Shown here one piece after another: positions 27,001-30,000 of a stretch of 64,000 bases of DNA. Position 1 is the stretch's first letter. Each line of letters begins with the position of its first letter. Source of the stretch: an uncultured Gammaproteobacteria bacterium (GTDB lineage: Bacteria > Patescibacteriota > Microgenomatia > JALYQM01); assembly GCA_964525495.1 (NCBI GenBank), contig CAZGHS010000006.1:10891-74890 (forward strand), in the 5' to 3' direction. Position numbers: made by a program.

Positions 27001-30000
27001 AGCCTTATATGGATTTTGTACTACTAATAGAGCTGCGTTTTTAAGTTGAAGTTTTATGTTTGGTGAGAGGTATGGTGAGACGAGTGAAGCAAGTTTCTTA
27101 TATTGAAGATCTAGATTGTTATATATAGATCTAGTAAACGCATAAAAATCTGGCGGTGATGAGTTACCTGCGTGGAATATTTGCTGATCCTCAATGACAG
27201 GCTGTATAACTTGTTGTGGTCGAATCTCTGGAACAATTTGTTGAGTTGGGGTAGATCTGTAGCTAAATATATATCGCTTATTGGCGGTACTTAAATTATT
27301 CTTCTGCAACTGATTCTGAATCCAATGGCGACTTACTAGTTGTTCCCCGTTATTTGCAGAGCACAGGTAACTATATATTTTGTCTACGCTCCAGGTAGGA
27401 TTAGCAACTATTAAGTCTTTGACCATAGATATAATTCGATCATCTATAGTAGTTTTTCTTCCCTGCTTTCGGCTATTTGTGTGATTTTCCTGCTCACTCA
27501 CTTTCTTCCATTTATAGAATGTTTTTCTAGAAATACTAAATCGAGCGCACAGCTCAGATACAGTTTTATGTTCCTTCAAAGCATTGAGGAATTCTTGGCG
27601 AAAATTGGCAGTATCTTTTTTGCGGGCAGGCATAAGTTACTTCAATAATTAATCTTTAAATAGTGTTACCTTTTTAAGGTATTATGTCAACATATAAATG
27701 TTTTCTCCCATTTATGGATATAAATTTAGCCTTAAACGACAAAAAACACCTAAAAGAAGCCTCTACTACTCTCGTTTTAAGGATTTTTAATGGATACCTA
27801 TGACCGACCTATTAGTTAGTATTGCTGTACTGTTACCTATCTTTTCATGACAACTTTATGATCTTAATTTAATGTATTTAATCTTCTTTTTTAAACTACT
27901 GTTTTATGTATCTTGAAATTAACCTTATGCTTTATTTTTAATGTATATAACCCTATATTATCCTTATAACTTTTATACTTTCTTTTTTGTATTATTATTA
28001 CTATTCTATGCTGTTTAATAATGTATCTTTTCATAGTCAACTAATGTTTTGTTTTCATTCACATAAATTATTGAGTTAAGATTTAATTTTTATAGGCTAT
28101 GTTGTTTCCGTGTTGCGTATTGACCCACTCAGTAATATTTATTAGTATTAGCTTGTATAAAATTTAAGTGTGCATACGTATCTATGAATAACGATAGTGA
28201 GACAAATTTGGACAGCGAATACCTTGGCATAACCGAAGCGGCTGAATACTTACGCGTTTCAGCCTCAACACTGCGTAGATGGGAAAAAAAAGGGTTTTTG
28301 ATTCCTGAGCGTACTCCTACGGGAATTCGAAGGTATACTAAGAAACAACTCGATGATGTTATCCAATCACCACCTCAACATGACGTAGCTACAGCTGTAT
28401 CAAGTGCTCCTGCCACTGATTATCAAATGCAATCAGACTATTCATTAAATACTCCTCCTGAAGAGAGTAATCCATGGCAGACAGAGCCTTCTGTAGCTGA
28501 GATTGATTCTTATATTGAGGAAACCGATGTTGTAACTCCAACAATTACAGAGGATGACGAGGTTAAGCAGCTTCATAGCTTTTTTCAGCAAGCAGGATAC
28601 AGCTTCGAGCCATCACAAGATACCTCACAGTCTTTTTATTCAAAGAATGACGCTGTAGCGCCACAGGTTGATGAACCTGTAGCTCATGAAGTAGAACAGC
28701 AAGAATTACCAAAGCTTGACTATATTGAGGAACGAATTGAAGTTGAGACACCATCAGAACGTATCGAAGTGTTTCATGATGAATATATGCAACCGGAGGA
28801 GGATGCGCATACGTATAACGAGCCGTTTAAACAACCTCGTCAAGATCGCGTTGAAACAACAGATGATCTGCTTGCCCTTACCGATGACCAAGAGGAAGAA
28901 GAATATGAAGAGCCAGTAAGATCAGAACAACCTACAAAGAAAAGACCATCGAAGAAGAAGCTGGTTATTTTTACTAGCGTATTTGTAGCTGTTTTGTTTA
29001 TCGTATTTATCTCTTGGTCAGTCTACAGCTTTTATTCTTCTCCAGGCCAATTGTATAGTCCTGTTATTGAATGATCTACTTTGATGCCATCTCTTTAAGC
29101 TTTTCTAAGGCTTTGCTTTGCCCTATTACGTAAGCCAGCGTGTTATGTTGCTCCTGAGAAATGCCGGACTTAATTCCGTTTTGTAACGCTAAGAGTTTTA
29201 TTTCTTCATCGCTGACCTTAATATCATTTTTAATGCGAATCTCTTGCAAGATTAAGGCAATTTTAGTATTCTCCTTAGCTCGCTCGACCCATTCAGCTCT
29301 TACCTGTTCTTTGGTCTTGCTCTCGGTCTGAAGATAGGTATCAAAAGTTATTCCAAGCTTATCAAGTTGTCCAATAAAACGCTGTTCAATCCTATTAACC
29401 TCTTCATCGATTAGTAGATCAGGCATATCTATGTCTACTAACTCTTGTGCTTTCTTTATCAGCTCCTCTTCGTATTGTCGTTCTACACGAGTGCCTTTGT
29501 CATACTCTATTTCTGACTTTACCAGTGATTTTAAGTCATCGAGATTTTGAGCTCCAGCTGCTTTAGCAAATTCGTCGTCCATTTCGACTTCGACAGGAGC
29601 ATCGGTTGATTGTGATTCGTTATTTATATTGCCTGCTTTTTCTTTGGCATCTTGTGCTCTAATTTTCTTGTATTGCTGGAATATTTTTTCTATAGACTCA
29701 CTGACTTCTTTGTCAGTTACGTCTTCTTTTGCTGGCTTGCTTGCCTTTAAGTCTGACTCAATTTTGTCTACTGTTACTTTTGGATAAACTATCGCGCTTG
29801 CTGTTACAACCAATTGTTGGCCTGGCTTCCATTCACCTTCAAGTTTATAGTCAGGGTAATTTAAAAGCATGATGCGCTGTTTTGTATCAGTTTGTGACTC
29901 TTTGAGAGCTTTTTCAAACTCTTCAGGAATCAATGTGTTTAATGCATCTTCGTATATTTTGTCTTTTCCGATGCTACCCTCTACCATGGCCTCTGGAGCT

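Follow-up and report, generated by a model that had tools for sequence, protein, structure and literature searches.

A transposase-type helix-turn-helix module at the N-terminus of a giant membrane glycan synthase of Patescibacteria and the promoter block that co-varies with it

The stretch of DNA analysed here (hereafter, the window) comprises 64,000 nucleotides (nt) of contig CAZGHS010000006.1 (positions 10,891 to 74,890 of the forward strand; assembly GCA_964525495.1). On its minus strand, at 18064..27633, it carries a gene for a surface-protein synthase of 3189 amino acids (aa), which was delimited by the open reading frame (ORF) call, Pfam domains and hydropathy, and in which a helix-turn-helix (HTH) module is joined to a glycosyltransferase family 2 (GT2) enzyme. 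From the N- to the C-terminus, the protein consists of the HTH module, a linker, two transmembrane (TM) helices, the GT2 catalytic domain, a TM channel, a further TM helix, a LamG domain, many Kelch propellers and a C-terminal TM anchor. The N-terminus of the ORF reads MPARKKDTANFRQEFLNALKEHKTVSELCARFSISRKTFYKWKK. An in-frame TAA stop codon lies two codons 5′ of the ATG and, consequently, 27633 is the first possible start.

The N-terminal module is of the bipartite transposase type and spans aa 4-127 (27253..27624, minus strand), as defined by Pfam and NCBIfam matches, a hidden Markov model of the module, an AlphaFold2 (AF2) model and charge. It contains seven helices: residues 9-20, 25-32 and 36-55 form HTH1, residues 65-77, 83-93 and 102-111 form HTH2, the last helix of each unit being the recognition helix, and an extra helix follows at residues 117-127. 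When aa 1-200 are compared with Pfam, HTH_28 matches at aa 11-45 (E 1.2e-6, 29 bits; cut-off 25) and HTH_Tnp_1 at aa 3-55 (25.3 bits; cut-off 24.1), while HTH_32 matches at aa 38-103 under its cut-off. In NCBIfam, transposase models are matched only over the N-terminal ~110 positions. IS481 scores best (E 5.5e-12, over positions 2-111 of the 284 in the model), ahead of IS3 (E 1.5e-8) and IS630 (E 7.6e-7), and the whole-model scores of 29-46 bits are far under the cut-offs of 100-224 bits. Pfam finds no rve or DDE domain in the whole 3189 aa, as the initial annotation of this DNA had already claimed for the region after the HTH units.

A profile built from homologous modules scores the module of the window with an E of 7e-27, far past chance, and AF2, when given the module alignment, predicts two three-helix HTH units and the extra helix with a mean predicted local distance difference test (pLDDT) score of 88.6. 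The net charge is +12, practically the family mean of +11.9. The best-conserved residues sit in both recognition helices (ISR.TFYKW and HGVQN.L.R..L); R36 and R120 are invariant, and Y40 and W42 of the recognition helix are nearly so. The start of the HTH1 recognition helix is encoded by the codons for S35-R36-K37 (27523..27531, minus strand), where the invariant R36 is followed by a residue, K37, that tracks the class of operator discussed below.

The initial annotation had described two consecutive HTH units at the N-terminus of a membrane glycan synthase. These are real, as both peptides that it quoted are present and Pfam, NCBIfam and AF2 agree on them. The extent that it gave (27330-27633, residues 1-100) is right at its start and too short at its end, since the module reaches about aa 127 (27253); the second peptide quoted corresponds to helices 1-2 of HTH2, and the recognition helix of that unit, SRHWIQNQLQ (aa 102-111), falls almost wholly past 27330 (about aa 101). 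As for the resemblance that had been noticed to the DNA-binding domain of IS630/Tc1 or IS3 transposases, the bipartite type stands, with IS481 as the best match ahead of the two families named.

Following the module there is a disordered Q-rich tether (aa 128-162; 27148..27252, minus strand), recognized by its AF2 pLDDT of 34-39 and its Q content, which is 14% over aa 100-170 compared with 3.9% overall. Thus, the Q-rich linker that had been reported ahead of the first TM helix is indeed there, with the TM region starting at about aa 208. In a 780-aa AF2 model, aa 130-161 have a pLDDT below 40 and are followed by juxtamembrane helices, the TM hairpin and the GT2 domain. The TM hairpin (aa 208-280; 26794..27012, minus strand) is based on hydropathy, AF2 helices and the conserved motif FFLYSxKYY. 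Its two helices span about aa 208-233 and 238-280 according to AF2; the hydropathy maxima fall on aa 211-233 and 242-273. Because two TM helices separate them, the HTH module and the GT2 domain are predicted to lie on the same side of the membrane. GT2 synthases take nucleotide sugars as substrate and hence have a cytoplasmic catalytic side, so that the side of the HTH module would be the cytoplasm as well.

The processive GT2 core extends over aa 330-731 (25441..26646, minus strand) and contains the motifs DDSTD, FDADF, TED and QRQRW, TM and interface helices and a conserved EGPWFRTPK(S/T)G. Pfam Glyco_tranf_2_3 matches the region with an E of 3.7e-21, and related families also match. Invariant columns include D364/D365/D368, D418/D420, T548-E549-D550 and Q586-R587-x-R589-W590, and predicted TM helices flank the catalytic domain both before (aa 208-280) and after it (aa 613-713). 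A Foldseek search with the whole model returns BcsA of E. coli and Rhodobacter (E 1.8e-15, 618 columns), as well as hyaluronan synthases, and BcsA is also among the PDB sequence matches of the core. Identity to the solved synthases is just 12-19% in the Foldseek alignments. By its motifs and TM layout, the protein is a BcsA-like processive GT2 synthase, for which a channel function is predicted.

The remainder of the protein, from about aa 820 to 3189 (18064-25200, minus strand), is a giant ectodomain with a LamG domain at aa 963-1120, dozens of Kelch repeats that make up several propellers, and the C-terminal TM anchor. It also matches Glyoxal_oxid_N (E 1.4e-19). The combination of a GT2 synthase with Kelch domains similar to those of galactose and glyoxal oxidases is reminiscent of the CslA-GlxA pair of Streptomyces. 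Many homologues of the giant synthase are likewise 2000-3200 aa long.

How widespread the fusion is was addressed with a homologue search that used aa 1-720 as the query and returned 584 sequences; the figures given next refer to the best 120 of these 584. Most of the 120 are 37-46% identical to the query (range to 58%) over 97-100% of its length and combine GT2 with the HTH Pfam families of the window protein. Their sources are Gottesman-, Woese-, Davies-, Curtiss-, Chisholm-, Nomura- and Nealsonbacteria, together with bins named 'Patescibacteria group'. According to the module profile, 109 of the 120 contain the module, which almost always starts within residues 1-10; the HTH extension is thus conserved and not specific to one lineage. 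The usual form has two tandem modules of ~130 aa, and at least two module stretches are found in 87 + 3 of the 110 matching sequences (window included); some proteins have one and a half, and a minority with a single module includes the protein of the window and its closest relative (locus L002). In 76 genome loci, the module occurs on GT2 genes only. A profile search of 1.84 billion representatives gave 297 clusters (50% identity) at E<=1e-30 and 2219 at E<=1e-10. Judged from these homologues, the HTH-GT2 fusion is the standard architecture of a sizeable Patescibacteria family. The initial annotation had called a genuine DNA-binding module on such a synthase very unusual, which is true in comparison with characterised proteins and untrue within its own family, where the fusion is the rule.

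Free-standing two-module proteins that might act as soluble regulators were also considered among the database matches, and they were set aside, as the short matches that were checked (n=7) stop mid-domain and resemble contig-truncated fragments. At one locus (L009), a 342-aa ORF with two HTH modules and a stop codon (5602-6630) immediately precedes a full-length HTH-GT2 gene (7135-10485). It looks most like a truncated paralogue, or else like a rare free-standing two-module protein.

The contig closest to the window, with 56-58% protein identity, is labelled 'Gammaproteobacteria', evidently wrongly. More generally, content of Patescibacteria type appears under the titles 'uncultured Gammaproteobacteria bacterium' or 'Candidatus Bathyarchaeia archaeon' in L001/L002 (CAYOFQ010000001.1), L020, L048 and others, and these titles are likely taxonomic mislabels of bins. 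Automated annotation has already given the name 'glycosyltransferase/transposase' to some homologues, and the co-occurrence of the domains is visible in databases. No description of the HTH-GT2 fusion, its operator or its logic was found in the full-text literature, whose coverage is incomplete, which makes this weak evidence of novelty.

The 120 nt upstream of the homologues contain a conserved block, namely TTGACA, 3-5 nt, (G)T(T)ACCCA, 7-8 nt and (G/T)GT(T)AACA(T/A/C), or TTGACA-N3-5-TACCCA-N7-8-(G/T/C)TAACA in its short consensus form. In its simple form, the block is present upstream of 49 of 64 HTH-GT2 genes, with spacers of 16-19 nt between -35 and -10. The pattern TTGACA-N16-19-TAACA has 50 matches in 855 kb of loci, where about 3 would be expected and shuffled sequence gives 0-6. 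For 42 of the 50, an HTH-GT2 gene on the same strand begins within the next 400 nt; the other eight are mostly explained by mis-called starts or by a position farther upstream of such a gene. The block is absent from all 13 paralogues that lack the transposase-type module. In a metagenome scan for TTGACA-N3-5-TACCCA-N7-8-TAACA, the module follows 32 of 121 among the matches listed, and, also among the matches listed, essentially all of the full GTACCCA...GGTAACA or GTTAACA forms precede a module; the matches that are not followed by a module look like chance or an unrelated promoter. In an alignment of the blocks anchored on CCC, information content is highest in the TACCCA of the spacer. As sigma-70 has no need of TACCCA in a spacer, another factor presumably reads it.

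In the window, the putative promoter/operator block lies at 27664..27690 (minus strand) and has the form TTGACA-TAA-TACCTT-AAAAA-GGTAACA (written TTGACATAATACCTTAAAAAGGTAACA). It has a perfect -35 hexamer, TTGACA, and a weak -10-like element (TAACAC/AACACT), and ends 30 nt upstream of the ATG. The spacer is taken up by a palindrome, TACCTT-AAA-AAGGTA (27667-27681), which also overlaps the -10-like region. A generic sigma-70 scan makes no promoter call on this block, because the -10-like hexamer is weak. It is the sole match to TTGACA-N16-19-TAACA in the 64 kb. At the position of TACCCA, the closest relative (L002) has TATCCT, and the proteins of the window and of L002 both depart from the consensus GNHGVQN in HTH2, where their helix has the unusual sequence SRHWIQ.

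Other sequences of this kind were seen. For instance, three loci have a further complete copy of the block, 630-920 nt 5′ of the gene-adjacent one (L043, 537-564; L123, minus strand, about 498; L036, 4566-4592), with no ORF of at least 40 aa between the paired copies. Such an extra copy could serve as a second operator or as the promoter of a non-coding RNA, or it could be what is left of a lost paralogue. Another recurrent block, TTGACA...TACCCA(A/T)TTTGCTATAAC, is found in eight unrelated metagenome contigs (L089, L097, L137, L147, L157, L158, L192 and L195); no HTH module follows it, and it is probably the conserved promoter of another gene family. Lastly, the AT-rich intergenic region of 550 nt contains a further stretch with GGTAACA and GTAC on the minus strand (27823-27848: ATGAAAAGATAGGTAACAGTACAGCA), which could be an additional half-site or a chance match.

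The operator block does not have the same sequence in all of these genes, and its variants follow a residue of the fused module. Modules were aligned to the profile with hmmalign, operator classes were set by simple rules, and quick neighbour-joining (NJ) trees were made. At position 2 of the HTH1 recognition helix, that is, after the invariant SR (K37 in the window), there is a K in 21/21 genes with GG-TAACA, a T, P, V or N in 22/22 genes with GT-TAACA, and an F or Y in 6/6 genes of the CCCAT..(A/T/G)C-TAACAT type. In two-module proteins, the first module obeys the same pairing (13/13 and 12/12), and so does the protein of the window, which has SRK together with AGG-TAACA. Mutual information with operator class reaches a maximum of 1.0 in the module and is at most 0.56 across 352 columns of the GT2 core. 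Two simple ancient clades behind the operator classes were considered as an explanation and set aside, as the GT2-core tree intermingles the classes (20 parsimony changes, 46 sequences) and they occur in several clades of the module tree even with the two diagnostic positions masked (~10 changes).

Paralogues of class A and class B can be found together on one contig, as in the mosaic tandem paralogues of L029 (586-4026 and 5590-8571) and of L013/L031 on CAYGWK010000004.1. Their GT2 cores are 91.8% (L029) and 77.9% (L013/L031) identical, compared with a family median of 59%; by contrast, their HTH modules are 30-35% identical, which equals the family median, and each keeps its own operator type. 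This suggests, from the pattern of identities, gene conversion of GT2 cores or shuffling of N-terminal cassettes. A shared regulator acting in trans would not account for these pairs, because operator types differ between paralogues in one cell, and the fused module is the sole class-specific DNA-binding domain encoded alongside each operator.

On the evidence of the sequences, the module is a domesticated bipartite HTH of transposase type (IS481/IS3-like, 'paired-like') and a standing, translated part of the synthase family. The question that had been raised, whether it is a genuine DNA-binding module on a polytopic synthase, can be answered positively as far as sequence analysis reaches: it is conserved, N-terminal, basic and confidently folded, and it co-varies with a promoter element. 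We therefore favour, with a probability of roughly 55%, the reading that the membrane-tethered synthase regulates its own gene through DNA binding by the module.

This autoregulation might work as follows. The cytoplasmic module, held ahead of the TM hairpin by a flexible tether of ~35 residues, would bind a cognate operator located in the spacer and the -10 region in front of its own gene. The sub-site adjoining TAACA would be contacted by HTH1 (SR-K/T/F...) and the TACCCA-type sub-site by HTH2 (HGVQN, or SRHWIQ in the window); the two sub-sites would be ~13 bp apart from centre to centre, a spacing suited to a paired-like domain. Autorepression would be the most likely sign of the regulation, because the site occupies the spacer and shares positions with the -10 region and the RNA polymerase contacts. 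Binding from the membrane seems plausible by analogy with transmembrane transcriptional regulators, and more so in very small cells. More speculatively, the nascent module could bind its own promoter co-translationally and in cis, throttling the output of a very costly protein. This would be possible because the module is the first part of the 3189-aa chain to leave the ribosome, and co-translational DNA binding and cis-preference are known from transposases.

Several observations weigh against autoregulation by the fused module. Fifteen of the 64 HTH-GT2 genes give no match to the block as a regular expression. The block of the window is itself diverged, with TACCTT where the consensus has TACCCA; when a position weight matrix of the spacer and -10 region (trained on other loci) is applied to the 64 kb, the site ranks 7th, and only with the -35 hexamer added does it become unique. 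In addition, NJ trees on short modules are noisy, and the promoter lies less than 150 nt from the HTH coding region, so that the two are inherited together; linkage combined with a few old paralogue lineages could yield the co-variation without any contact. As for structure, a Foldseek search with the module places the Pax6 and Pax5 paired domains on top and the DNA-binding domains of TnsB, CENP-B and IstA lower, all with E >= 0.3 and hence not significant, and phmmer with aa 1-130 against PDB sequences gives no match at E<=1, that is, no solved relative. The likeness of the predicted module to Pax and other paired domains is a resemblance only, and membership of that fold is not claimed. Finally, many blocks have 18-19-nt spacers, typical of MerR-controlled promoters, and MerR-like homologues are encoded divergently upstream of 21 of 58 HTH-GT2 genes, including that of the window.

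The last two points lead to the alternative that survives best, although we consider it unlikely: the fusion would be functional, but the promoter block would be read by another factor, either the divergent MerR-type protein or a dedicated sigma factor, and the module would act otherwise on DNA. It might bind other targets, or it might hold the nucleoid, or just its own locus, close to the membrane-insertion site of the giant protein. In the window, the divergent gene (28184..29074, plus strand) encodes a 296-aa protein with an N-terminal HTH of MerR/HTH_17 type (Pfam MerR, E 4.9e-12), a long acidic low-complexity linker and a C-terminal TM anchor, and a sigma-70-like promoter for it is found at 28120-28148. 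Promoters controlled by MerR have a long spacer of 19-20 nt and a dyad operator that is bound by a dimer of the MerR-family protein. The spacers of 18-19 nt and the partly palindromic element between -35 and -10 amount to a MerR-type layout; 12 of 49 family spacers are of 19 nt, and in the window the spacer is 16-17 nt long with a perfect dyad, TACCTT-AAA-AAGGTA. Furthermore, two HTH-less Patescibacteria paralogues, L047 (5503-) and L058 (5350-), have a MerR/HTH_17 domain fused to the N-terminus of GT2 and, for this reason, the MerR-like protein can be taken as functionally linked to the synthase.

Nevertheless, a MerR-type reader would leave much unaccounted for. Of the 58 genes with enough upstream sequence, 37 have no MerR-like gene within 2 kb, and most of these 37 carry the block. 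Conversely, the block is found in 0/13 loci without the transposase-type module, including those with a MerR-like domain, though these belong to more distant lineages. The MerR-like neighbour does not sort by operator class, whereas operator classes differ among same-contig paralogues and track the residue of the fused HTH. Moreover, no MerR match is found past the N-terminal HTH of the neighbours (by Pfam for the protein of the window), and the C-terminal parts are short or of low complexity in the listed sequences. Nine of the 21 neighbours have a C-terminal TM helix, and 12 are soluble proteins of ~101 aa. The 296-aa product of the window is thus a second membrane-anchored HTH protein, adjoining the HTH-GT2 synthase gene.

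A second alternative, which we regard as improbable, is that the module no longer binds nucleic acid and has been reused as a protein-protein or regulatory domain, which, as accessory domains do in other processive GT2 synthases, would serve, for instance, oligomerisation, partner recruitment or autoinhibition. Regulation through appended domains is established for BcsA-type synthases, and the protein is a structural match to BcsA. The position also tolerates signalling domains, as HTH-less paralogues carry other regulatory N-termini: at loci of Chloroflexota/Anaerolineae type (L069, 4921-; L073, 2635-; L076, 3342-), a receiver (REC) domain is found at the N-terminus of GT2, once together with MshEN. 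Taken with the MerR-type fusions described above, this means that the N-terminus of the synthase is a recurrent docking point for regulatory domains. A role without DNA, however, fits poorly with the strong positive charge of the module, with conservation that is highest in both recognition helices, and with a disordered tether, not a packed interface, between module and enzyme; it also leaves the co-variation of recognition helix and operator unexplained.

The weakest alternative, put forward by the initial annotation, is that an insertion sequence (IS) supplied a new start and promoter and left the HTH segment as an accidental or untranslated remnant; in spite of the similarity of the HTH to transposase families and the presence of internal Met codons, which are not conserved starts, it can be considered refuted by the conservation of the module across the family, since hundreds of homologues with 37-58% identity from many Patescibacteria lineages hold it in frame at their N-terminus, a conserved promoter lies 5′ of the first ATG, there is no DDE remnant in the 3189 aa, the module occurs only once in the 64-kb window, and a look for terminal inverted repeats near 27634..27700 and beyond gave nothing convincing, only AT-rich matches of 10-17 nt with 76-92% identity within 27500-28250.

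Autoregulation by the fused module can be compared with several known systems. Transposases of the IS481, IS3 and IS630 families (HTH_28, HTH_Tnp_1, HTH_32; as in Tc1/mariner and Pax) have, like the synthase, two three-helix HTH units at the extreme N-terminus; the module matches the first ~110 positions of their models, and its top structural neighbours, which are not significant, are Pax and transposase DNA-binding domains. In contrast to these elements, the synthase has no DDE/rve domain, IS ends or multiple copies, the module forms part of a membrane enzyme, often as a tandem duplicate, and its recognition helices are kept family-wide, with a proposed cognate site that is a promoter and not an IS end.

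Transmembrane transcriptional regulators act on promoters while anchored in the membrane (PMC11856585). ToxR, TcpP, CadC, ChiS and TfoS resemble the synthase in having a cytoplasmic DNA-binding domain linked to one or more TM segments, an arrangement that is predicted here. They are distinguished by OmpR-type winged-helix or other domains, one TM helix and a periplasmic sensor, whereas the synthase has a transposase-derived domain, a multi-pass processive glycosyltransferase and a giant surface domain, and its own promoter is the only target detected. The trigger enzymes PutA, BirA and NadR combine catalysis and DNA binding in one chain and autoregulate their own gene or operon, as is proposed for the synthase. 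PutA has a ribbon-helix-helix domain, associates peripherally with the membrane and switches between membrane and DNA; by contrast, the synthase is integral and would leave the membrane only if cleaved.

With regard to the enzyme, BcsA, hyaluronan synthase, chitin synthase and PgaC/NodC share with it a GT-A domain with the D, DxD, TED and QxxRW motifs and flanking TM helices. The synthase differs from them in having an N-terminal HTH module instead of PilZ or another known regulatory domain, and in the LamG and Kelch ectodomains fused at its C-terminus. Lastly, the divergent neighbour is similar to BldC-like and Xis-type proteins, which consist of a MerR-type HTH without an effector domain, in that it has such an HTH alone, but in the window and at eight other loci it is anchored to the membrane by a C-terminal TM helix.

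A broader form of autoregulation by the synthase can be put forward tentatively, at somewhat less than even odds. A large family of giant envelope-glycan synthases in Patescibacteria would be their own membrane-tethered transcription factors, each with a private operator and with an insulated feedback loop for each paralogue that possibly works co-translationally in cis. The K, T/P/V or F/Y at position 2 of the HTH1 recognition helix would pair with the base or bases 5′ of TAACA, and selection would separate the HTH-operator cassettes while the cores homogenise. If this is true, a polysaccharide synthase that doubles as a sequence-specific DNA binder would constitute a new coupling of envelope and surface-polymer production to transcription, one that needs no diffusible regulator and suits ultra-small cells with few classical regulators. 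It would also be a clear case of a transposase DNA-binding domain domesticated into a bacterial host regulatory circuit. The apparent code of one residue for one operator variant (K, T or F for GG-, GT- or C-TAACA) is a directly testable specificity rule, and the mosaic paralogues suggest selection for insulated regulatory cassettes. In practice, TTGACA-N3-5-TACCCA-N7-8-TAACA may be used as a metagenome marker for HTH-GT2 genes, which are now mis-annotated as 'transposase' fusions or as plain glycosyltransferases.

Downstream of the synthase gene, the window contains a cluster of large membrane proteins of GT-C type (2910-18061), all but one encoded on the same strand as the synthase. There are TMEM260-like proteins at 15902-18061 and 8171-10156 on that strand, YfhO-like proteins at 12621-15080 and 5889-8174 and, on the plus strand, at 2910-5273, and a Glucodextranase_B-like protein at 15077-15898. 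The region looks like an envelope glycosylation locus. Elsewhere in the window, the only Rfam match at the gathering threshold is a single tRNA gene (42816-42888, minus strand).

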